NCBI GenBank assembly: GCA_963575745.1
Contig: CAUYUJ010000176.1
Location: 1 to 64,000, forward strand
Origin: Prorocentrum cordatum
Lineage: Eukaryota
DNA: 64,000 nucleotides
Direction of reading: 5' to 3'
Shown here: piece by piece, positions 14,634 to 51,781 of the stretch
Numbering within the stretch: position 1 is the first letter of the stretch
Layout of the letters: every line of letters starts with the position of its first letter
Notes under the pieces: model-generated
What the model saw: the letters and a program-made list of their open reading frames with translations, nothing else
Told to the model about the DNA's origin: nothing
Databases searched by the model: none
Program-made: the position numbers and the translations under genes

Positions 14634-14873
14634 GACTACTACTACTACTACTACTTACTTAACTAACTACCTAACCAACTAACTAACACTACACACTACC
14701 ACTGCTACTTCGGACTACTTACTGCTACTACGACTACTACTACTACTCTACTACTACTACTACTACGACTACGGACATTACTACTACTGCTACTACTTAT
14801 ACGACTATACTACTATATACTACTACTACACGACACTACCACTACGACTACGACTACGACGAACTACTATTAT

Positions 14874-14966
<93 letters not shown>

Positions 14967-18077: not shown

Positions 18078-18112
<35 letters not shown>

Positions 18113-18138
18113 GACTACTACGACTACTATTGCGACTA

Positions 18139-18194
<56 letters not shown>

Positions 18195-18229
18195 GACTAC
18201 TGCTACTACTACTACTACCACCACTACCG

Positions 18230-18269
<40 letters not shown>

Positions 18270-18390
18270 CACTACTACTACTACTCTTTTTGCTACAACA
18301 GCGACTACGATTACGACGGCGACGACGACGGCCACTGCAATTACGAGAGCTACGAGAATTATTACTATTATGACAGTTGCTACTACTACG

Positions 18391-18424
<34 letters not shown>

Positions 18425-18431
18425 GTACTAG

Positions 18432-18503
<72 letters not shown>

Positions 18504-18855
18504 CTACTACTACCTACTACTACTAATACTACTACTAATAATATTAACAATCATGAAACTAATAAGAATAATAATAGTAATACCTCGGCTGCAAGTAGTA
18601 CTGCTACTACTACAACTACCACTGCTACAAATACGACGATTACTATTCTCGCTTTTGCGATTACTAGTACTACCACTTCTACTGCTATTACTACGACTGA
18701 GACGACGACGACGACTACTATTACTACAGCTACTACTACTACTATTACTACTACTACTACTACTACGAGTAAGCTTACTGATCTTATTATTACTAGTACT
18801 ACTACTGCAACTGCGACTGCGATTAGTACGACTGACACTAGTACGCATATGACTG

Positions 18856-18892
<37 letters not shown>

Positions 18893-18893
18893 G

Positions 18894-18931
<38 letters not shown>

Positions 18932-19427
18932 GATTACTACTACTACTACTACTACTACTACTACGTCAACTCCTCCTCCTACTACTACTACTGCTACCAC
19001 GACTGGCACTACCACTAAGAATACAATTACGACTACCAGTATTATCGCTACTACTATTACCACGGGTACGATTACGATTACGACTATTGCTATTGCTTCT
19101 GCTACTACGGCTGCGACTACTACGACTTCGGCTACTACGACTACTACTCCGACCACCAACGACTATTATTTTCATAGTGGCTCCTTCTTTGGAGACGAAA
19201 AGGGTCGCGCGCCGAAATCCATTCCAGACGAAATTGCGGTTTTTCCTAGAGTTTCAGTGTGCAGGCGCGCCCTGCCGCGCGGTGGTTTCCAGTCGCACCT
19301 TAGAGCGTGCTGACGCATAATGCAATTCATTTGTATTGCACGTTGCGCATGCTATCGCGTCACGCATGGCTTGAGCTACTTCGCAGACACTTTCTGGCGA
19401 GGGTTTTCGGGGGCCCTCTCAGGGCCC

Positions 19428-20125
19428 GCTGGGGTCGCCGAGTGCCGAGAGCTCCCGGCAACCATTGTCGACTGTTGGCAAAGGCAACGTCGCCGAAATG
19501 GCCGCCGATAGAGCCGCCGAAAGGGCCGCCGAGATTGCCGCCGAAGGGGCCGCCGAAACAGCCGTCGGAAGGGCCGCCGGAATTGCCGCCGAAATTGCCG
19601 CCGAAATTGCCACCGAAATCGCCGCCGAAATTGCCGCCGAAATTGCCGCCGAAATTGCCGCCGAAATGTCCGCCGAAATTCCAGATGGCTCCGCCGAAAA
19701 CAGGCCGAATTTGACCTTGGCTGTTACTCTATGCCTGTGTCTGCGGCGTCATCGTGCTTACTGGAACAGCGATTTCGCTTGCGACGGGGCAGTGAAAATT
19801 TCGGCGGCTGAATTTCGGCGGCGACTTCGGCGGCTGAGTTGCGGCGGCTATTTTGGCGGAATTCGCAGGTATTTCGGCGGCAATTTCGGCGGTGAGTTCG
19901 GCGGCAAGTTCGGCGGAACGTTCGGCGGCAATTTCGGTGGCAATTTCGGCGGCGATTTCGGCGGCAATTTTGGCGGCAATTTCGGCGGCGATTTCGGCGA
20001 CGATTTCGGCTTCCGTTTCGGCGGCCCTCCTGGCGGCCCTTTCAATGACCATTTCGGCGGTTTTGCTTTTGACAGCTGCCGACGAATGCTGCTGGGAGTT
20101 CGCAGCACTCAGCTGCGGCAAAGAG
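19428..20125. mobile_element. Foldback-like element with modular 12-bp inverted arms
   Basis: Left arm gccgagtgccgagagctcccggca...cgccgaaatgg plus (GCCGCCGAAATT)n; ~100-bp loop; right arm (AATTTCGGCGGC)n plus ccatttcggcgg...tgctgggagttcgcagcactcagc. Confidence 0.65.
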
Positions 20126-20536
20126 TCGATGTGCGGCGAGGCAGGCTGACCTGACCTCAGCCCGACGATGATTGTAACTTGTGTTCTCTTGTGGTTTTGG
20201 CGGTGATGATGGCGACGGCCGCGGTAGTGTTTGGTTCAACATGGATGCTCGTCCGGGGGCAGTGCAGGCTGGCCTACGCGCCCAGCACTGCATGCTTTCA
20301 AACAAGAAAAAATTGCCGCGCAACTCCTTTGGAATTCGGCGGCAATTTGGGGGGTCGTGGTGGTTCCAAAGGATTGTCCTCGGTGATTATTTATACATGT
20401 GCTATTATTATTATTGCGACGACTACTACAACGACGATTATTGCTACTATTGTCGTTAGTACACTTACTGCTTCTACGACGGTTACTATTACTACTACTG
20501 CGACTCCTACTACTACCACTACCATTACCACTACCA

Positions 20537-20578
<42 letters not shown>

Positions 20579-20627
20579 TTACTACTACTACTACTACTAC
20601 GACGACTAGGACTACGACTACGACTAT

Positions 20628-20677
<50 letters not shown>

Positions 20678-20686
20678 TTACTACTT

Positions 20687-20736
<50 letters not shown>

Positions 20737-21134
20737 GCGATTACTACTACGACTACTGCTTCTATTACTATTATTGCCACTACTACTACAGCTAGTACTC
20801 GTAGGAGTAGTAGTCGTAGTGCTAGGAGTAGTAGTAGTAGTACTACAACTACGACTACAACTACTGGTACTGCTGCTACTATTACTATTACTACTACTAC
20901 TACTACTACTGGTACGATTTCCTCCTACGACTAAAAATACAAAAGGGTACTGCGAGTAGGACTACGGCTACTACTATCACTCGCACTCCCCATACCTATT
21001 CTACTTCTACTGCGACGAGTCCTACTACTACCTCGAGTCCTACTACTACACCGACTGCTACTACTATTACTACTACTACTATTACTAATACTACTACTAC
21101 TATCACTACTATTACTACTACTACTACGACTACG

Positions 21135-21169
<35 letters not shown>

Positions 21170-21216
21170 GACTACTACTACGACTACTACTACTACTATT
21201 TCTACTACTACTACTA

Positions 21217-21248
<32 letters not shown>

Positions 21249-21291
21249 GCGACTACGACTACGACTACGACTACGACTACGTCGACGACTC

Positions 21292-21322
<31 letters not shown>

Positions 21323-21379
21323 TACTACTACTACTACTACTACTACTGGTATTACTACTACGACTACTACTACTACTAG

Positions 21380-21423
<44 letters not shown>

Positions 21424-21624
21424 TCGAACTTGGACTATAAGACTGCGCACGACGACCTTCCTCTTGAACCCATTATTCTACTACTACTACTACTACTACT
21501 ACTATTACGACTACCACTACTATACTCTATACAACGACTACTACCTACTATTTTGTACTACTACTACTACTACTACTACTACTATCGACTACTACTACTA
21601 CTACTACTACTATTACTATGCGAT

Positions 21625-21692
<68 letters not shown>

Positions 21693-21941
21693 ACTACTAC
21701 TACTACTGCTACTACTACGACTACGACTACAACTACGACTACGACGTTTCGTTTTTTATTAGGACGACGGTGACTACTACGACTGCTGCTGCTATTACCA
21801 CTTCTACTACTACTACTACTACTACTACCACGACTACTACTACTACTTTTCCGACGACTACTACTACTTTTACTACTACTACTACTGTTACTACCACTAC
21901 TACCACGGCTACTACTACTACTACTACTACCACTACTACTA

Positions 21942-22013
<72 letters not shown>

Positions 22014-22060
22014 ACTACTACTACTACTACCACGACTACCACGGCTACTACCACTACTAT

Positions 22061-22207
<147 letters not shown>

Positions 22208-22208
22208 T

Positions 22209-22380
<172 letters not shown>

Positions 22381-26798: not shown

Positions 26799-27160
26799 TG
26801 TGGTCGAGACGGCGGAGGCCCCAGCAGTATGAGGGGGCGTCTTGGAAGGGTCCGCCTTCGCCTGTTGCGCAGGACATCCGCCTGAGCTTCGTGGTGCGGG
26901 TCTCGGCAAAGTATTGGATCGGCAAGGCCTCTCCTCGGGGAAACGAGCAGTGACATACACAGACAAACTCGGAGGTCCGCGCGGATTTCTCGGATCGGCG
27001 CTGGGGCCCCTGGCGGCGCCTCCAGCGCCGCCCCTGGCGCGCTCCGCGCGCCAGGGAGGGGGGTCCAGCGCCGATCCGAGCCCCGTGCCGCTCCCCTATC
27101 CCTATCTTCCCTCTGCCGCTGCCCCGTGCCCCGTGCCCCCTCCACTGCGAGCGCGTTCCA

Positions 27161-27269
27161 CTACTCGCAACGTGCCTGCCCGCAAACGCCAGAAAAAAGC
27201 ACACATGTCTGCTCTGATGTCATTCATCGTGGATCCCTCGCGGGGGATCGAAAGGCCATCTGCGAGTAG
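27161..27269. mobile_element. Mini-element, CTACTCGCA-TIR family
   Basis: ctactcgca...tgcgagtag termini; relatives at 37575, 42602 and 43669. Confidence 0.6.
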
Positions 27270-31199: not shown

Positions 31200-32140
<941 letters not shown>

Positions 32141-37542: not shown

Positions 37543-37880
37543 TCATTCTTCGTTTCCCTATACTTGCAAAGTGCCTACTCGCAAACGCCCCGAGCACACA
37601 TGGTCGCCTCGATGTAGTGGATCGGAGTCCCCCGCGGCGGATCCGGGCCGTTTGCGGGTAGTAGCGAGTAGTGGCCCTGCGCGTGATTTGTGGAGCGTCG
37701 TCGTCTGTTTCCCGGGCCCGGGGCCACCAGAGTCTCCGACGACCTGCCACTCCTATGCAGTTTCGGCGTCGGGGCCATCGACAAGACCCGGGGCCACCAA
37801 CCAAAGGAGCCCGGGGTCTGGGCCGCGGAAGCCGGCCGGCGTTCGGCACGACTCGTGCTGACGCTCTTCCGGGCGGCTTT

Positions 37881-42363: not shown

Positions 42364-42601
42364 GAGTAAAGTGCGTTCCCCCATGAGATGACAACAATTT
42401 TGTGTTCATGGTTTCCGGAACCCTCCATCTGGTCTTTTGGCGAGCACGTCGGCATGGCGACGCTATCTTTGGTTGCGATATCTGCGTTCTCATTCGTGTG
42501 CGTTCGTGCGCCCGAGCGGATCCGGTACGGAGGCATGAGGCACGGGGAGGACGGCGGGTGTTGCTAGAATCACCGAGCGCGTTTCATTTCTCGCAAAGTG
42601 C

Positions 42602-42690
42602 CTACTCGCAAACGTCCGAAGAAACATGTGTTTGCCTCGATGTAGTGGATCGCCGATCCCCCGCGGCGGATCCAGGCCATTTGCGAGTAG
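42602..42690. mobile_element. CTACTCGCAAA-TIR mini-element
   Basis: Perfect 11-bp TIR ctactcgcaaa / tttgcgagtag. Confidence 0.65.
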
Positions 42691-42990
42691 TTTCTTTGCG
42701 AGTAGTTCAACGCGCTCGTCTAGTCGGGTGTTGCTAGAAGCAACCCCTGGCCCAAGGTGCCCCCAGGATTTCCAAGGAGGCCCGCACGGCCTCCAGACCA
42801 CCCCACCACGAGGGCCCGATCTTCTCCCCGGGGGCTCCCAACAGGGCGCGAGAGGCTGCGGGCACCTTGCGCCAAGGGCACCTTTGAGCAGCCCATGGGA
42901 GGATGGAGCAGTCGAGGGAGCGAGGAGGAGGAGGAGGAGAAGGAGGAGGAGATGGGATGTCGGGGCAAGGCGAGGCACGCGCCCGCGCAG

Positions 42991-43035
42991 GCTTGGCGCC
43001 AGCTGCGCGACACCTACCTGGACATCTGGGCCGAG
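42991..43035 (+). CDS. Host gene exon C (AWRQLRDTYLDIWAE)
   Basis: CAG|G acceptor, GAG|GC donor, 45 nt, phase 0/0, GC3-rich. Confidence 0.8.
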
Positions 43036-43066
43036 GCCCCGTCCGCGGTCTGCGGCTGCCGTTCGT

Positions 43067-43438
43067 CAGGAGGGGAAAGAACACACAGACACAAGTAATC
43101 GTCGACTCCAAGGAGAATATGGGAAAATATAGGAAGTGGGGGGGAAGACAAAAACCCAGAAAAGATTGGAAAATATGGCAAACCCTGTTCTTTGTGTGAA
43201 TGTGTGTGTGTGTGTGTGAATGTGTGTGCGCGTGTGTGTGTGTGTGTGTGTGTGCGTGTGTGCGTGTGCGTGTGCGTGTGCGTGTGCGTGTGCGTGTGCG
43301 TGTGCGTGTGCGTGTGCGTGTGCGTGTGCGTGTGCGTGTGCTTGTGCGTGTGCGTGTGCGTGTGCGTGTGCGTGTGCGTGTGCGTGTGCGTGTGCGTGTG
43401 CGTGTGCGTGTGCGTGTGCGTGTGCGTGTGCGTGTGCG

Positions 43439-43470
<32 letters not shown>

Positions 43471-43492
43471 GGTGTGTGTGTTTGGGCCCCTT
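43067..43492 (+). mobile_element. CAGGAGGG...GGGGCCCCTT element, copy 5, with internal (GCGTGT)n expansion
   Basis: Same termini; the TG tract is expanded to ~290 bp. Confidence 0.75.
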
Positions 43493-43942
43493 CAGTTCGG
43501 GCGCTCTCTCGCTGCAGAGGGGCGCCTCGGCGACCCGGGGTGCAGACCAGCGGTCAAGCCTTGGGAGCTCTGCGTTGTGCCAGTTTTCGGTTCGAGAGCA
43601 GCCTTCACGTTGGAGGGTTGCGCTGAGGATCTTCCTGGTCGGACTCTCCACTCATCGAGTGCGTCCCACTACTCGCAAAGTGCCCACCTCGAATACGTTC
43701 GAACAAACGCACACATGCTTGCCTCTAAGTAGCTGATCGTAAATGCCCCGCGGTGGATCCAGGCCATTTGCGAACAGTGACTTCGCGAGCAGCGAAACGC
43801 GCTTGTCACTGTCTACCCACCGTGGCGTTGCCCTGGGCACCTCCATGGGGCCTGGCCCTCGCTGAAGGAGCTCATGTTCCTGACCCACGTTCCAGTGACC
43901 ATGCTTCGGCTGTCGTGGCAGACATGCCGCCCAATGGGTTCC

Positions 43943-43960
43943 AAACCTTGAAGCAAGGGC
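43943..43960 (+). repeat. Target-site duplication, left (aaaccttgaagcaagggc)
   Basis: Exact match to 49289-49306. Confidence 0.9.
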
Positions 43961-43982
43961 GCCGTGGCAATTTTGGCTCGAG
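43961..43982 (+). other. Relic dinoflagellate spliced leader (DinoSL)
   Basis: GCCGTGGCAATTTTGGCTCGAG vs DCCGTAGCCATTTTGGCTCAAG: 19/22, ungapped, abutting the TSD. Confidence 0.85.
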
Positions 43983-44046
43983 TTCAAACCGCGGGACCTC
44001 GGCGGCTTGAGCTTGTTCGCAGCCGAGAGGTCTGGGCCAAGGCTGC

Positions 44047-45256
44047 GTGCCTTCAGGGTGGTTTTTAGCATGGTGCCAGGTTGAAGGGTCACCAAGGGTC
44101 CGCCCAGCTGGCACCTCTCTTCGCCTGCACAGCACTTTGGCAAGGATAGGGCGCAAGGGCGTCAGAAGGACTGGGAAGAGTGTCGCACGACGTGAGCACC
44201 GTCATCGCGAGAGCTCGCACTCTTCTTCGTCAGATAGCTCTAACAGCAGGAGCCGAGGGACACGTTCCCTCACACGATCGAGGTCGACATCGGCACCGTC
44301 GACGAGTGACAGAACAGATCAGCCGCGTGCGCCAGATTCTGCGCCAGAGTGGGTGACAGGGCTGATCACGAACACCAGAGATAGCAACACGAGGCTTGAA
44401 CAGATGGAGATGACTATGGTGGCTCAGATCAGCACGATGATGGCGACCATGGAAGTGCAGGACAGCAACATCCCGCAGATGGGGGGCAGGCTCCAGGCGC
44501 TGGAGCAAATGCAGAATGGGGTGCTTACAGAGGCGGTGCTGACGGCGATCGGGTGCACTATGAATGCGAAGTTGGAGGTGTCCAAGTGCAGCTTGACGAC
44601 CTGCAGAAGGCGACAGTGCCGACCACAGGTGTCCATCAGAGGGTCGTCTCGACCGAGAAGAAGTTGGCGGGTGAGAAGGGTCGGCCGTCCAGGCCGGGCT
44701 CTGGTGCTGCTAGTGGTTCAGCCACGGAGCAGGAAGGCGCTTGCAGGCTGATTCTTGTCGGGTTCCTTGCCCGTTGATGGGCAAGATACTGAGGAGGGCG
44801 GCGGAAGCGTTTCGGGATGCACGCTCGCCTGAGCACGAGAGGAGTAGCATAATGACCACGGCCTCCGACATGTCCAGGAAGGCAGTCCTCGAGTTCAACA
44901 GCCCGAGCCGATGCTCGGACTTCATCGCGAAGTTTCGCGCCCTGGATGGGTTTCGGTTCCAGAGCCCGGTAGACTCGGAGGCGAAGTACACTCCGAGGCG
45001 GAAGCGGGGCAGCAGCCAGCAGGGAAGGAGGCTCTTCTTCATCATGGGCCCCGTGCGCAAAGTGATCAGTGAGGCCCTGGGGGGCAGGTGCGAATGCGAC
45101 TCGAACGGGTTCGGAGGGGCCATATATTCGCTGCTCAAGCAGAGTGCCCGACGACGCTTGTGCAGCTCAAGCTGGAGGGTGAGGAGGTGCAACATGCGGC
45201 CCATGAGCAGGGTTTCGGTAGCTTCGGCATCCAGGATGCGATTCCTGCGGCGCTAG
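44047..45256 (+). pseudogene. LINE ORF1-like (basic/Ser-rich, coiled-coil-like, then possible RRM-like region), frameshifted
   Basis: RLEQMEMTMVAQISTM...RLQALEQMQ heptad-like segment, followed by RLILVGF and KAVLEFNSPSRCSDFI; lies upstream of EN. Confidence 0.55.
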
Positions 45257-45599
45257 CTGCCCTCACTGTGCCCATTCAGCCCGTTCTCAATCGGCGTTGA
45301 CGGTCAGTCAGAGACGCGTGCCGAGGCCCGCGCGCTGCCGGGGCGCCTGCGCGAAGATGCGCGCGAAGGCGGCAGGCTTTATCAGCGCGTCCAAACTGTG
45401 ATTGCTTCGCATAGCGCTTTCTTAGATAGCGGCCCGTCGGCGGGGTCTCCTGGCGGGTTAACTTCTCCCCCCGCCGCTGGCTCGCCCCCTCTGGGAGCGT
45501 CCAGGACTTCTGCTGAATCCCTGAAGCCTTCGTTTCGGAATATTGGCCTTAGGTTCTTTCCTTTGGCGGACCCCGCGGGGCGTCCGGGCGCTGTCCCTG

Positions 45600-48500
45600 C
45601 GGTTAGAGGTGTCTCGTATAGTCCACCCTTCGGTGTGCGCTTGGAACGCCCATGGGCTATTTGGGAGGATGCGGGGTGGGAGTTGCACTTGCGCGAGGAA
45701 ATGCGGTTGCGGTCTTGGTCATTGTGCCAGGCGATGTTGTGCGTCTGCAAGTGTGCCGCGGACATGTAGGGGATGCGGCTGCGTTGCTTCGTCGGTTGAA
45801 ATCCGTAGCGATTGGAGCCAGCTTCTTAGATCTCAATGCAGCAGGGGGAGTTGTCGCCATCATCCGCGAGCGCCTCAGGAGAGAGTTTTCTTGCATTTGA
45901 CATCCGCTTCTGGGGGGCGGGAGGGCCATTGCCACGTGGATGGATGGAAGGAAGTGGTCGATGACCATGTGCCCAATGCCAATATGGGCGCGCCTATCTA
46001 CGCTGCCTGTTTGCGCAGAGTCCGCGACAATTTGCCATGGGGCGCCCGCTCTCTCAACCTTATTGTTGTGGATTGGAATTTCACCATGTGGGGGGGGGTG
46101 GATGACTGAAGATGGGCTGCGGTGGGGCGAGGGGGGTCGGGTGCATCTCGGGCTCTTCGATTCTCCGCGCGCCGACAGGTTTGAACGTGCGCAGTATGAA
46201 CCGACGCGGCTTGGATGGAGCGCTGACCGCTCGACCCGGCACACAGCTAGGCTGGGCAGGGTGTATTCTGATGCGCCGTCGGCGGCGCCGGCGGATGCGA
46301 CTGTGCGCGCCTCAGTCCACGGCTCATTTCAACGCTGCTCATCAGATCATAGGCCGATGGTCGTCGTTCTGGAGGCATTCAACCCGGGGGGGGGTCGTTG
46401 CGTCCCTGCGCGGTTGCGACGCACGGACGAGCATCGCCGAGCTGCGTCGGATACGTTAGCTGCCACTCCGACTGGTCTACACCAACCGCGCGGCTCACGC
46501 TCGCCAAGGCGCGCCTGGGGGAGCTCGTCGCTGCAGCTAGGGAGGCGGCGCGCGGGCGGCCTGCAAAGTGCCCTCAGGAATAGCACTATTGGATTATGAA
46601 TGCTCTTAGGGAGGGCGCGGCTTGGGCGATTCATTGCGTGCGCGCGCGGTCGTTGCGCACCCTGCCGCGCTACGATTCTTCGATTAGGGGCGGATGTACC
46701 GCGCGGACCTGGAGGGGCCATGTCAGCACGCTAGACAGTTACAGCTCGAGCACATTGTTAACCGGGAGAGGGAGATTCAGCGTGGAGGGACGCCGGGAAT
46801 TACGGAGGAGAAGGAGGCTGCGCGAGAACCTGAAGAGCAAGCTGCGTCGAACGCGGCAGTTCTGGCAGCAGTTTAAGAGACGTGTTTTTCTCGATGGAGC
46901 GCGGGGCCAGGATGGCAGCGCGCGTGCGTCGACCGACGCTGCCAGCAATGCGCTCGCGGAGCATTTTTCTGGAGGGGTCTTTCGCTAGATGCAGGAAGAT
47001 CGAGCGCTTTGACCTGGAGCTTGAGCACTGTCTGCACGTTGATGGGCTCGAGCCCGGACGCCGCCCAGAGCGGCGGTTTGCGCGTGAGGAGCTTGGCCGT
47101 GAGATTCGGAAGGGGGGGGGGCGCCGTCCCTGGGGGGGATGGGACGCCGCGTGCTGCTTGGCAGGCGGGCTGCTTTACGATGCGCGCGCCGAGTTGTTTG
47201 ACAGTGGGAGCGAGACGCCCCTTGCGAACATGCGCGAGATGCTGCTCTGTTTGTTGCCAGAAGGTGCTCGTGCCGAGGACAGGGCAAGCGGTGTCTCCCG
47301 AGCTCCTGGGGCCGCGCGGCCTTTAGCCCTCTGCGACGCAGACGCCAAGGTCACGCCATTGGCCTTTGGAGCGCCGCTTGGTGCCATCGCGCCGCGCGCA
47401 GCTTATGTGGATCAACGGAGGGGGGGGTGCGCGGTCGGTCTATTGCGCCCAACATCGCGGTTGCAGACAGGCGGGGGGGGGGGGGGGATGCAACGACATG
47501 TGGGTGGGTGCCGGAACGGTGTTCAGATATTTACGGACTCTGCGGCAGCGTTTCCCTCGATCCACCTTGCTTGGATCCTGAGAGTGCTCGAGTGCATGGG
47601 CGCCCCCGAGCAGATCGGTTTATGCTTGTGCTCTGTATGCCGACAATACCGGAACCAACATGTTGAGGGGGGGATGATTTCTGAACATGCGATTGAGGTC
47701 GGAAGGAGGGTTCGGCAGGGTGGCCTTTCGAGCGTGCGCCTGTTTGCCGCGGCGACAGATCCAGCCCCACGGTGGCTCGCGTGGAACGGTAGTGAGCGCG
47801 TGGACAGAATGTCTGCGCATTGTGATGACCTTATTTTTTTATCCCTAATGCCGAGTGCGGGCTTCGGCCGATTCTTGGGCTCCTCGGGGATTTGGAGGGC
47901 GCGGTTGGATTGCGCCTCAACTTTCGGGAATGCGTTGTGCTTGTGGTGGGGGGCGCTTCTCTGGAGGCTATCGCTACCCTCGCGGGTCGATTGGGGGCCA
48001 GTTGTGGGCGCGTGGCGGTTGCGCGCGCGGTCAAATATTTTGGGGCGGTGATCGGGCCAGAGGGCCCAGCCAGAGCTGAGGGCGAGGCTATCCCCGAGCT
48101 GCTGGATGGGACGATGGCCGCACGGCATGCTGGGCTTGGCCTTCCGTTGGGCATGCGCACATTTCATGTCCTCCGCTTGTCTCTCCTGCAGTACATCTTC
48201 CAAGTCTATGTCCCACCTCGCGCGCTCCTCGTTGCCTATCGGCAATGCGCCCAATTGTTGACGAATGGGCCGTGGAACGCCATGTCCACGGGGTTGTTGG
48301 AAGGCCTTCGTATGTGTGGTGGTGGGGTCAGTTCGACGCACTTCCCGTGCGCGAGCATTACGGCGCGTGCACGGCGCGCGGCACAGTGCCACGAGCATCC
48401 TGCAGAGCTTGGGCAGGTGCGAGCCTCTATTCGTTCAGATGAATGTTGCATTGTACGTGGGATGTGGGGATGATGGAAGGAATGCATCACTTACCAGATG

Positions 48501-49140
48501 GGGGAAGCCAGGAGGGGGGGGCGATGCCTGCGTTGCTTGTGCTTGATCCGCCGCCGCGCACGCCGAGGAAAACAATGCAGATCGCAAACTTTATGCTCAC
48601 CTGTTGAGGATGTATCGTCGTCCTTGCCGTAGTGCACTCGATATTCTGAAAGCCCGCGTCGATCGGTGGCTCCCCGAAGTAGACATTGATGATCTTACCA
48701 GCATTTCGTATCGTCTTTTGTGTGTGTGTGTCGTGTTGCGAACCCCTACTTTGCGATGACATAAGTACGGTTCGCGTGTCGGGGACTGTGCGGCGGCGCT
48801 CTTGCAGACGGTGGCGAGGAGGTGCATGTTCGGGCGCCGAGGGAACCAGGCCAGAAACTGCCTCAGACACTACTCAGTATGCCTTCGGCTTCGCGAGATG
48901 ATCGACCGATGGCTGCACGATGAAATACTTGCCCATGGGCATGATTGATTTTCCCCCCTCTGTTTTTGACACGCCTCAGTCAGGAAGCCGACGTTAGGCT
49001 TACCTCAGTATGTGATGCGTTGTATTTCGCGCGCAATGCCTGGAGGTGCGGTGCCACTGTTGCTCCGAAGTTGCTGTTTGAAGGCAGGCTGAGAGTTCGC
49101 TGCCGCTTGCATCCTGCGGTGCAGGCCGCCTGGAACCAGA
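45600..49140 (+). pseudogene. LINE ORF2 (endonuclease-reverse transcriptase), multiple frameshifts and stops
   Basis: EN: WNAHGL (45642), DWNF (46071), SDHRP (46342). RT: RPLALCDADAK, TDSAAAFPSI, VRQGG (47713), HCDDL (47821), VKYFG (48030). C-term: CMFG...CLRHYSVC (~48824-48883). Confidence 0.88.
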
Positions 49141-49288
49141 CGCCAGAGGTCGGGCAAGCTGGCGGCGGAAGTGGCAGTGGAAGAAACAGACCGCGAACGC
49201 CACCCAGCCTTGTCCCAGAGCGTACGCTCTCGGTTGTGTATTTTTTTCATTGTTGGGCCACCGCTGGGGAGGTGGTGGCAGGGGAAAA

Positions 49289-49306
49289 AAACCTTGAAGC
49301 AAGGGC
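49289..49306 (+). repeat. Target-site duplication, right
   Basis: aaaccttgaagcaagggc preceded by extra As (49285-49288). Confidence 0.9.
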
Positions 49307-51781
49307 GCGCGAAATTGTTCGCTCTGCACGCTGCGCGGTCCGGGCTCCGATTCCCCCTCGTCCTCCTCTTCCCCCCTTTGGGTGCGGCGCGAGAGCAGGA
49401 AGTTATTCGCGCTTCGCGCAGCGCGAAGCCAGAAACCAGGCGCCCGCGTGTTTCGACTGTCGTGCCAGAGGTGCCGTCAGACGGGGTCAAAACCTTGAAG
49501 CGGGGACCACGGCCGGCACGACGCGCACAGCCGCCGGTGTGCCTGCAGCGACTCACGCCCACGGGTCTTGACACTGTCGCGCACGGCACATTCACGACCG
49601 CATCTTCCTCTGCCTCTTTTCTCTCGGTCGCTCGTTCTCAACCTCCTTCTTTCGCACACAGGACCTCCTCTTTCTCGTGGCGCAGGGAGGAGTCGGACTG
49701 GGAAGTGAAGAGGAGGAAGGGAGGAGAGAGAATGATGATAATCATGAGGAGGAGGAGGAGGAGGAGGAGGAGGAGGAGGACGATGCGGAGAAAAACGGTA
49801 GTTGCGATGGCGTGCTATCTGGTGAGACTAAGAGTGGCATTCGTGCAATTTTTGTTTGCAGCCAACTGGAAGCCAACGGTGCCAATAACGGCGAGGTCAC
49901 CGCTGGTCCTGGCCGGCGACGCCAAGATGCGTTCCGTACCGTAGACCCCCTCCTTGTTTTTCTCCACCCGGTTTCTGATTACAGAAGCATGAGAATCCAG
50001 CGAATGTGCCCCTCTCCTCCACCTTCTCGGCCTCCTGCTCGCCATCCTTTTCGTCTAGACCCCTTATTCGCCCTTCTCCACATCGTTTTGCCCTTCCTCG
50101 TCCTTCTCCGCCTCCGCTTTCTCCTTGTCGTCCTCCTCCTTTTCCCTTTCCTCCTCCTCCTCCTCCTCCTCCTCCTCCTCCTCCTCCTCCAGCCTGACTC
50201 CCGCATAGATCTGGCCACCTTGATGCAGCACATGCGTGCTCTGTGGGTGCCTCGGTGGACAGTCGAGGCGTCTCTGCAGCGCTTCGCTGCAATGCATGAG
50301 AGACACGTCACGCACAGGCGAAGATTGGCAGCCGATGACCAGTGAGGATACGGTTCAGGCGTTCGTTGAGGAATGTGCCCAGGAGGCTGCAGACCCTGGA
50401 GGATTCCTTATCTGATGAAGGTGGCTGTGATATCCCTTGCCTATCCACTGTTGGATTTCCACAAGCTTCAGACCCTGTGTTCCTTTATCTGAGGGTTCTT
50501 TGTCCAATGCCCACACCGTATCTCGCGCTGCCTCCGCGGGGCCCGAGCCTCCACAGGCAGAGGCTCGATCAACCGACCTAGGCCCCTTGGACCTGCGCGC
50601 CTCCCACCCCCCGCCTCTCGATCGGAGCTCCTGATTCTGGCTCCAGGCCTGCGAGGAGGACGTCTCCTGGTCATGGCTCCTCCTCCCCCTCCCCCTCCTC
50701 CTCCTCCTCATCCTTCTTCTCCTCTTCCTCCTTCTCAATGGCCGCCGGTCCTCGAGGGGCTCCTCCCAAAGCCCGACACCGGGGGCGAGCGCGGCGTGGC
50801 CCTTCGCCCTTGGCCCATCCGCTTTGTTCTTGGGGGGGGGGGCCGGCTTCGTGGGAGCCCCGTGGGTGCGGCGGCGTGAGGCGCGAGCTGGGCCCCGGGA
50901 TGACGAGAGGCCGTCCGCGGGAGCTCGGCCCTCCACGTGTGCCCCGGCCCGCCGGCTCCGTGCCGAGCAGGGGTGGGCCTCAGCGGTGTTTGGGCGATTT
51001 CGTGGGCCGTTTTCGTTTCGATCTCGTTCTGCGTTCCAGGCGGACGGAAGGCAAGGCGAGGGAAAACGGAAGCAGAACGAAAACGAAGAGCGCCGCTTGG
51101 TGACAGCCCTGGTGCCGAGTCGCTGGCGGCCATGGGCTTCAGCAGCGGCAGCGTGCTCTGGGAGGGCGCAGCATTTGCGGACTCGCTCGACCCGCTACGG
51201 CCTTGCTCGCCTCCGCCCTCGAGCTTGGGTGCCGGGCTCGGACGGTCGGACCCTCGCGGACGAGTTGCCTCGCCCCTTGGTTCTCTCCGCACAGGGTGGA
51301 GGGGGGGCACTTCCGAGGCCATCGTGCCCACTGGGCCCCTCCTCACGGGGGAGGGAAGGGCCACCAATTAGGCACGTGCAGTCCTATATGACGTCTCGGT
51401 AGCGAATCAGGGGAGCCTGGTATACCCTCTTAATGCCGTCTTCAGCGTCGATTAGCGTCTGGGAGTCGATGAGATGTCGGCGATTTCGCGTCGATATGCG
51501 TCGCTTCAGCGTCGACTGGCGTCGGTTGGCGTCGATTCGCAAGAGCCGACAAGGTGGTATAGGAGACTCCCATGAGTCGCCACCGAAGGGGAGGGAAGGG
51601 CCAACAGTCTCGCACGTGCCGTCCCATATGACGTGCTGCAGGCTGTCCATGATGAGCAATTTCCCCCGCGCTGTGGTCAAGCAGTGGGCTGATGATGCGA
51701 ACACCGGAGGGGCCGAGGGCACGGCCCGACAGGTTCTCGATCTCCTCCCCCCAGGCCGCGGGCCGCTTTTGATCGCGAGGC

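Follow-up and report, generated by a model that had tools for sequence, protein, structure and literature searches.

Several known systems link retroposition with spliced leader (SL) sequences. Dinoflagellate genomes reportedly hold recycled cDNAs, the retrogenes with a relic dinoflagellate spliced leader (DinoSL) of Slamovits and Keeling (2008). SLACS, CZAR and CRE of trypanosomatids and NeSL-1 of nematodes insert into SL RNA genes by means of a restriction-like endonuclease, and the long interspersed nuclear element (LINE) L1 has an internal promoter in its 5′ untranslated region (UTR). Here we describe an insertion of 5.3 kb in the first 64,000 nt of contig CAUYUJ010000176.1 from Prorocentrum cordatum (GenBank assembly GCA_963575745.1, forward strand; this whole stretch is referred to as the window). 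The insertion lies between two copies of a target-site duplication, starts with a relic DinoSL and carries the remains of a LINE with an APE-type endonuclease and a reverse transcriptase (RT). It is likely that these 5.3 kb are a target-primed cDNA copy of an SL-trans-spliced LINE mRNA, inserted in satellite-rich, gene-poor dinoflagellate DNA.

The locus resembles the DinoSL-relic retrogenes in that a DNA-encoded 5′ leader marks a reverse-transcribed, trans-spliced mRNA, and in that leader tandems, here at three metagenomic loci (L008, L059 and L020), mark repeated rounds. Unlike in those retrogenes, the retroposed RNA is the retrotransposon's own, and both insertion boundaries (the duplication and the As) are visible. 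In the excerpted text of a review, the mediator of dinoflagellate retroposition is called unknown, long terminal repeat (LTR) elements are favoured, and about one gene in five in some dinoflagellate genomes is put down as a leader-tagged retrogene (PMC6050394). A passage of Song et al. 2017 likewise treats the mediator as unknown and leans to LTR elements (PMC5585692), and a passage of PMC8045281 describes LINEs as abundant and old in Symbiodinium and Polarella.

With the target-primed LINEs of the L1 type, the element of the window shares the order of ORF1-like region, APE, RT and Cys/His motif, a few As at the 3′ end, a duplication of 18–20 nt that starts in As, and a 2-nt microhomology at the 5′ end. 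Unlike in L1, its 5′ end appears to be the trans-spliced leader of the host, and the likeness to the L1 type is one of scores, R2 being nearly equal on the RT part. Like SLACS, CZAR, CRE and NeSL-1, it is a non-LTR element physically tied to leader sequence; unlike in these, the leader belongs to the RNA copy that was inserted, the target sequence is unrelated to it, and an APE-type endonuclease is present. The L1Tc/ingi elements of trypanosomatids, as described in the abstracts of PMC1874656 and PMC3185411, have unspliced transcripts, the Pr77 internal promoter and a ribozyme like that of hepatitis delta virus, which cuts the 5′ end. As in their case, a LINE in a host whose mRNAs are all SL-trans-spliced must set its own 5′ end within co-transcripts. 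Unlike in L1Tc, the leader itself forms the 5′ end here, and nothing in the window, ribozymes included, reaches the gathering score of an Rfam family. In Hydra, about 30% of the Iso-Seq reads from transposable elements bear the host leader, so that these RNAs use host trans-splicing (PMC12220107); unlike the present evidence, this is at the RNA level and from an animal, and the passage concerned is silent on genomic copies that start with the leader.

Boundaries of the insertion

The sequence AAACCTTGAAGCAAGGGCGC is present as an exact direct repeat of 20 nt, at 43943–43962 and 49289–49308, and brackets 5.3 kb. These are its only two copies in the window, even when 3 mismatches are allowed, and two matches were reached in 0/100 shuffles. 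The first-pass annotation had proposed an exact repeat of 18 bp around 5.3 kb; exactness and bracketing hold, and the length is corrected to 20 nt. Its own reservation, that the repeat might prove to be a dispersed motif, is not borne out within the window. The last 2 nt of the repeat (GC) are also the first 2 nt of the leader, so that 18 nt of the duplication are certain and the other 2 nt are microhomology. At the left end the order is ...GGGTTCC AAACCTTGAAGCAAGGGCGC CGTGGCAATTTTGGCTCGAG TTCAAACC..., and at the right end ...GGCAGGGG AAAA AAACCTTGAAGCAAGGGCGC GCGAAATT.... Neither LTRs nor any other terminal repeat were found in 43000–50500.

At the 5′ boundary, positions 43962–43982 differ from the 21-nt DinoSL core (reference sequence as printed in a passage of PMC7245778) by 3 mismatches. 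This is the sole such site in 64 kb, and a match of this quality was reached in 0/100 shuffles. With the G at 43961 included, the match is 19/22, as had first been noted for the start of the insert; by chance it would be expected at about 9e-9 per given position and about 1e-3 for the whole window. The leader starts at the first base after the duplication, or overlaps the duplication by 2 nt, depending on whether the shared GC is counted. It is directly followed by TT, not by the GT found after 36 of the 141 listed metagenome matches described below, and thus the element contains no more of the SL RNA than its exon. Three changes are found in the 22-nt leader, versus 0 in the 40 nt of both duplication copies (p ∼0.04 if the rates were equal). 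They could reflect a variant leader, a worn DNA-encoded leader that was already in the source transcript, or chance.

At the 3′ boundary there is a run of 7 As (49285–49291), three of which belong to the repeat, leaving 4. An AAAA directly before the 3′ duplication has a chance of about 0.0016 at 20% A. The A-tract that had been noted for this end does stand directly before the 3′ duplication; it is weak, with just 4 As ahead of the duplication and 7 when the common AAA is counted. The first 12 nt of AAACCTTGAAGCAAGGGCGC occur three times in the window. The third occurrence, at 49490, sits in a 53-nt local duplicate (49449–49501) that is 79% like 43902–43954, the stretch leading into the target, so that the target site lay in a small local duplication. 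The features of the locus, all on the + strand, are as follows.

43943–43962, +: 5′ copy of the target-site duplication; exact over 20 nt, of which the final GC is common with the leader; 0/100 shuffles
43961–43982, +: relic DinoSL GCCGTGGCAATTTTGGCTCGAG; 19/22, with changes at leader positions 6 (A>G), 9 (C>A) and 20 (A>G)
43983–44403, +: putative 5′ UTR; the first in-frame ATG of the helical ORF1-like frame is near 44404
44011–45256, +: ORF1-like region in three frames (44011–44751, 44400–44777 and 44714–45256), assigned by position and composition
45730–46551, +: APE (Exo_endo_phos-type) endonuclease remnant; frame 3, in-frame TGA at 45898; found by tblastn with the APE parts of relatives
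47149–48593, +: reverse transcriptase domain; frame change near 47845–47870, in-frame TGA at 48471
48604–48945, +: C-terminal part of ORF2 with the Cys/His motif; frame 3 (tblastn 48604–48882), in-frame TGA at 48757
48946–49284, +: putative 3′ UTR
49285–49288, +: A-tract remnant; 4 A, or 7 A including the first 3 bases of the duplication
49289–49308, +: 3′ copy of the target-site duplication; exact repeat of 43943–43962
49449–49501, +: local duplicate, context only; 53 nt, diverged (79%), versus 43902–43954, which ends in the first 12 nt of the target

Coding content and state of the copy

The domain order on the + strand is ORF1-like region, APE, RT and Cys/His tail, with the RT starting 3.2 kb behind the leader. 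The protein relatives of the RT were collected by an exhaustive HMMER search with the 405-amino acid open reading frame (ORF) at 46834–48051 (cut-off E≤1e-3). This gave 93 proteins, the best of them 46% identical, and 5 of them reached 1e-10; a word-indexed protein search, covering the near-length class only, found no close relative at E≤1e-5. The relatives are APE+RT proteins of 1000–1250 amino acids, and in the ten that were scanned with Pfam, RVT_1 was found in 10/10 and an N-terminal Exo_endo_phos in 6/10 (in P0023, from residue 2). Their domain content marks them as ORF2 proteins of APE-type LINEs. Among solved structures, human LINE-1 ORF2p is nearest to one of them, P0005 (E 2.5e-21), with R2 proteins close behind on the RT part (E 4.8e-19).

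When these relatives were used as tblastn queries, the RT was recovered in two pieces, 47149–47916 in frame 3 and then 47862–48593 in frame 2, with a best E of 1.6e-32. The alignments retain the RT motifs …FTDSAAAFPS… (F-D-AAFPS), …RQG… and …CDDL… (DD motif). On the ORF of the window alone, RVT_1 of Pfam scored E 0.0016, below threshold. The APE region gave weak but significant matches to the APE parts of P0087 (E 9e-5) and P0007 (E 8e-4), and nothing for APE was returned by Pfam on the window's own ORFs. The C-terminal part aligns to residues 1001–1092 of P0005, including C...C...C..H...C. The ORF1-like region (44011–45256), split over three frames, has a heptad-like helical stretch and what may be an RNA-binding-like part; the single Pfam match was of coiled-coil type (E 0.11, weak), and the comparisons made brought out no homology to any ORF1. 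ORF1-like, APE, RT and Cys/His content had all been claimed from the letters of the sequence. The RT is firm, the APE weak but significant and the Cys/His tail aligned, with the ORF1-like region standing by position and its helical heptad stretch only.

The element had also been called full-length. This applies to its layout, which is complete; the copy itself is coding-dead, its reading frames being fragmented and its ORF2 interrupted by three or more in-frame TGA stops and two or more frameshifts. The stops within the homology-aligned parts are at 45898, 48471 and 48757, the frame changes are near 47845 and 48600, and four further frame-3 stops lie between 46597 and 46831. With such frames the copy is predicted to be unable to move by itself. 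Two histories would account for this: a few per cent of decay once the copy was in place, or copying in trans from a transcript that was itself defective. The in-frame stops in the homology-backed parts of ORF2 are TGA in 3/3 cases, which is the pattern that would be expected of CGA>TGA decay at methylated CpG.

Exact DinoSL loci in metagenomes and viral contigs

A metagenome collection was searched for the exact 21-nt DinoSL, which gave at least 126 loci with at least 141 matches, and flanking DNA was obtained from 80 loci. Those matches that are followed by GT look like SL RNA genes. No RT or APE match at E<1e-5 was found at any of the 126 listed loci, just 18 of the 141 matches having at least 3.5 kb downstream. 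At four of the listed loci (L059, L008, L020 and L037), one ORF1-like family lies 0.2–0.5 kb downstream, on the strand of the leader. The L059 ORF matches that of L008 (E 3e-11), and a profile built without L037 and L020 finds these two, among 4315 six-frame ORFs, at E 1.4e-8 and E 1.5e-8, respectively.

Locus L059 (1528 nt) reads, on its minus strand, (TG)n, an A with the exact leader behind it, a second leader in worn form, GCCATTAACACTCTCAAG, a 5′ UTR of about 200 nt and an intact ORF of 347 amino acids, with a long helix followed by strand-helix units. The AlphaFold model of this ORF1 has the long helix at 63–142 and then strand-helix-strand units; its mean pLDDT of 48.9 is too poor for a fold search. 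The end of the ORF is overlapped by 'MGMHLPIPIFDGALSLCWWNARALLHSN…IIG', which runs to the contig end. After the ORF1 stop, this tail contains '...LSLCWWNARALL...', which aligned to the N-termini of three relatives of the window RT: in the 93-sequence set, residues 4–34 of P0023 (48%, E 0.005), 38–77 of P0024 (E 0.006) and 10–49 of P0076 (E 0.21). We read the tail as the putative start of an APE domain.

A worn second leader directly after the exact one is present at three of the four loci (L008, L059 and L020). In L008 the order is T, leader and AGCGATTTTGGCTCGAG, and in L020 it is leader and CCATTTGCTCTTG. According to the model in a passage of PMC7245778, an RNA that has undergone reverse transcription, renewed expression and a second trans-splicing is known by its complete leader with a truncated, worn one behind it. 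These exact-plus-worn tandems therefore argue for repeated rounds of transcription, trans-splicing and re-insertion of the metagenomic LINE-like family. Thus, in other dinoflagellates a LINE-like family appears to have passed through repeated leader-capped rounds, with L059 alone reaching ORF2, and this family is a different one from that of the window. When the window's ORF1-like region was compared with the metagenomic ORF1-like family, BLASTP gave E 75 and 0.035, a hidden Markov model search gave no match, and the hhalign probability was 0.05%.

The worn leader of L008 (1318–1334, minus strand) and the leader of the window (43970–43982) share the change CTCAAG>CTCGAG. Among 144 distinct ATTTTGGCTNNAG sites in the 126 listed metagenome loci, L008 alone has it.

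In the longest downstream ORF behind 54 leader matches, Pfam identified a family in 9/54 (HSP70, scramblase, Pol beta, DUF4116 twice, HMG, EF-hand, RING and inositol-phosphate synthase), and neither RVT nor APE was found among these 54 ORFs. The other 45/54 have no Pfam family at E≤1e-4. Long ORFs (380–800 amino acids) without a Pfam family lie behind many of the metagenome leaders, e.g., at L005, L019, L020, L021, L025, L027, L066, L070 and L074. Around 93 leader relics of the metagenomes, no convincing duplication with an A tail was found. Locus L033 has, at 31–399 on the minus strand, a weak antisense RT fragment (E 0.001 to P0017) that ends inside an exact DinoSL (396–416), perhaps because a leader-tagged retrocopy landed in or beside an older LINE. 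The leader search of IMG/VR gave 119 stretches of viral contigs (L127–L245) with the exact 21-nt DinoSL; most are in giant-virus bins, and one contig often has several. None of the 119 had a LINE match at E≤1e-3, and two protein-based searches of IMG/VR returned no matches.

Surroundings and search for further copies

No second copy was found in the window outside 43900–49400 by blastn, by tblastn with the element's three frames, or by tblastn with the 93 relatives, and the window contains no other LINE RT. The window was compared, at 80% likeness, with a DNA metagenome run (X1), which contains a tenth (0.10) of its sampled words; X1 was the sole public run listed for these words, and no RNA run was among the listed ones. 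Contigs of X1 cover scattered 151-nt stretches of the element with 0–2 differences each, at about 2× depth. No X1 contig joins across the insert, and no empty site was seen in X1. One X1 contig of 218 nt is 86% alike over 43970–44043 (74 nt, i.e., the last 13 nt of the leader and the 61 nt behind it), a hint that it may be a second copy with the same junction.

Runs of at least 7 Gs are frequent in the element: 8 of the 30 in the window lie inside it (46090–48521), compared with 0 of the 18 C-runs (binomial p ∼0.003). The longest has 15 Gs (47473–47487), and several fall where the RT relatives carry ordinary conserved residues. An X1 contig also has the G-run at 46386, with one G>A.

The insert is surrounded by satellite and microsatellite DNA, with (GTGTGC)n just upstream, and it is not visibly within a gene. 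Two N gaps are present in the window, together with TAC/ACT/GTA arrays of 1–3 kb and a 117-nt satellite. The latter has about 20 copies, and the kb-long trinucleotide arrays consist of TAC/ACT/TGA, with GTA in opposite orientation at the far end. These blocks (1–2341, 7839–8520, 10357–14966, 18078–22380, 31263–32136 and 61110–64000) have a GC content of 0.37–0.42 and a strong strand skew, and those at about 10–15 kb and 18–22 kb resemble a large duplication. A dispersed repeat of about 150 nt (74–76% alike) is found just upstream of the insertion site (43652–43807) and at 42570–42720, 27140–27265 and 37555–37656. The X1 depth is 38× and 132× in parts of this repeat and of 49380–49429, versus about 2× for the element. 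Of the other window ORFs of at least 180 amino acids, 0/124 have a Pfam family at E≤1e-5, and no SL RNA gene was found in the window.

Discussion

The sequence shows the insertion boundaries, the match to the leader, the order of the domains and the disrupted frames; from these we infer every step of the following pathway. A source LINE with a 5′ UTR, an ORF1-like gene, an ORF2 with APE, RT and Cys/His tail, and a 3′ UTR would have been transcribed, the 22-nt DinoSL would have been trans-spliced to the 5′ end of its RNA, and the RNA would have been polyadenylated. A LINE endonuclease would then have nicked the bottom strand at ...GGTTT/GG, the Ts pairing with the A tail; because the duplication begins with AAA, the nicked bottom strand would end in TTT, able to form such a pairing. 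The RT would have copied the LINE RNA through to its very first base, a second-strand break 18–20 nt away would have given rise to the duplication, and the 5′ end would have been joined by the 2-nt GC microhomology. In its core, this agrees with the first-pass annotation, which had read the locus as an SL-trans-spliced LINE RNA that was fully reverse-transcribed: the leader is at the first base after the duplication, an APE+RT unit follows, and As are at the end. What fits that reading less well is a leader with 3 changes next to a duplication with 0. Outside support for the core reading comes from the layout of L059 and from L008, L020 and L037, where the ORF1-like family lies behind an exact DinoSL.

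Several observations weigh against this interpretation. The A-tract is merely 4–7 nt long, and ORF2 is broken although the duplication is perfect. The excess of changes in the leader suggests that the leader of the source may not have been a fresh canonical one. The ORF1-like region appears to be without homology to the metagenomic ORF1-like family, and 0 of the 126 listed DinoSL loci has an RT match at E<1e-5, within the downstream reach given above. No second copy of the window's family was seen in the window or, at close range, in protein libraries. Finally, the window gives no independent proof that the host is a dinoflagellate or that it trans-splices, the SL RNA gene, Rfam and Pfam (124 ORFs) searches all being negative.

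Some of these points would be expected if the insertion were a one-off processed pseudogene, in which a host or read-through transcript that held a dead LINE copy was trans-spliced and then retroposed in trans; the leader would in that case be uninformative on the normal life of the family. A perfect duplication around an ORF2 with at least 3 stops and at least 2 frameshifts fits damage before insertion, as does a leader already worn at 3/22 positions, and further copies were seen neither in the window nor, at close range, in protein libraries. However, a decay of a few per cent after insertion would give equal damage and leave the 20-nt duplication intact in a fair share of cases (an estimate, not a computed value), and the ORF1-like/APE element of other dinoflagellates, with its exact and worn leaders and an intact ORF1, points to repeated leader-capped rounds. 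We regard the one-off pseudogene as unlikely, though it is the main rival to a once-competent copy that decayed in place. Such a pseudogene and a decayed, once-competent copy are, in any case, versions of one event, the LINE-type insertion of a leader-capped LINE RNA. A different origin of the leader is conceivable if the RT, having reached the 5′ end of the LINE RNA, switched template to the SL donor RNA and so made a 5′ chimera, for which the U6/L1 chimeric pseudogenes of mammals offer a parallel. In its favour, SL RNA is abundant in the nucleus, and the join coincides with the extreme 5′ end of the insert. A jump onto the 3′ end of the donor RNA, however, would have copied the intron part too, whereas the 22-nt exon alone is present, which argues for trans-splicing. 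The exact-plus-worn tandems of L008, L059 and L020 are, moreover, the signature of repeated trans-splicing in the model set out in a passage of PMC7245778. We consider such a template switch very improbable.

Hardly any credence can be given to the two other explanations. A leader sequence adjoining a non-LTR element brings to mind a site-specific element within an SL RNA gene, in the manner of SLACS, CZAR, CRE or NeSL-1. Yet the leader is confined to the 5′ end, inside the duplication, the duplicated target AAACCTTGAAGCAAGGGCGC does not consist of leader sequence, the 3′ end is followed by neither leader nor SL intron, and the element has an APE-type endonuclease rather than a restriction-like one. 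Equally remote is a chance or assembly artefact, in which the repeat and the leader-like word coincide or the insert was misjoined. The window is a draft with two N gaps, and the 8 of its 30 G-runs that fall inside the element could hint at sequencing trouble. Against this, 0/100 shuffles reproduced the repeat, as was the case for the leader, and X1 contigs match stretches of the element with 0–2 differences per 151 nt, across the G-run at 46386 too; X1 may be the source sample, so that it is not independent.

If the insertion is, as we favour, the copy of a leader-capped LINE RNA, a wider life cycle can be imagined. Dinoflagellate LINEs may live leader-capped and promoter-free: trans-splicing at the old leader would free them from larger transcripts, full reverse transcription would renew the leader, together with its acceptor, in each round, and the same APE/RT, acting on any SL-capped poly(A) RNA, would make the thousands of leader-tagged retrogenes of the host. 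Both the promoter-free cycle and the RT as the source of the host's SL-retrogenes are plausible, and we put them forward tentatively, as a possibility somewhat short of an even chance.

In the excerpted text of Song et al. 2017 (PMC5585692), the Gene Ontology class 'RNA-dependent DNA replication' is enriched among leader-relic genes, and this implies that some RT genes bear such relics; that text does not describe any LINE with both a leader cap and a duplication. A full-text search of the literature gave no description of a LINE whose genomic copies start with a spliced leader; RT genes that bear leader relics may well be listed in the supplements of Song 2017 and Gonzalez-Pech 2021. What is new is that LINE insertion and leader-tagged retroposition, both known, are found together in one element.

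On the reading preferred here, the element shows target-primed, LINE-type insertion acting on leader-capped RNA, and the source of leader-tagged retrogenes becomes a directly testable question. It also points to a promoter-less route for a LINE, which differs from the internal promoter and ribozyme used by the LINEs of trypanosomes, the other large group with universal trans-splicing.

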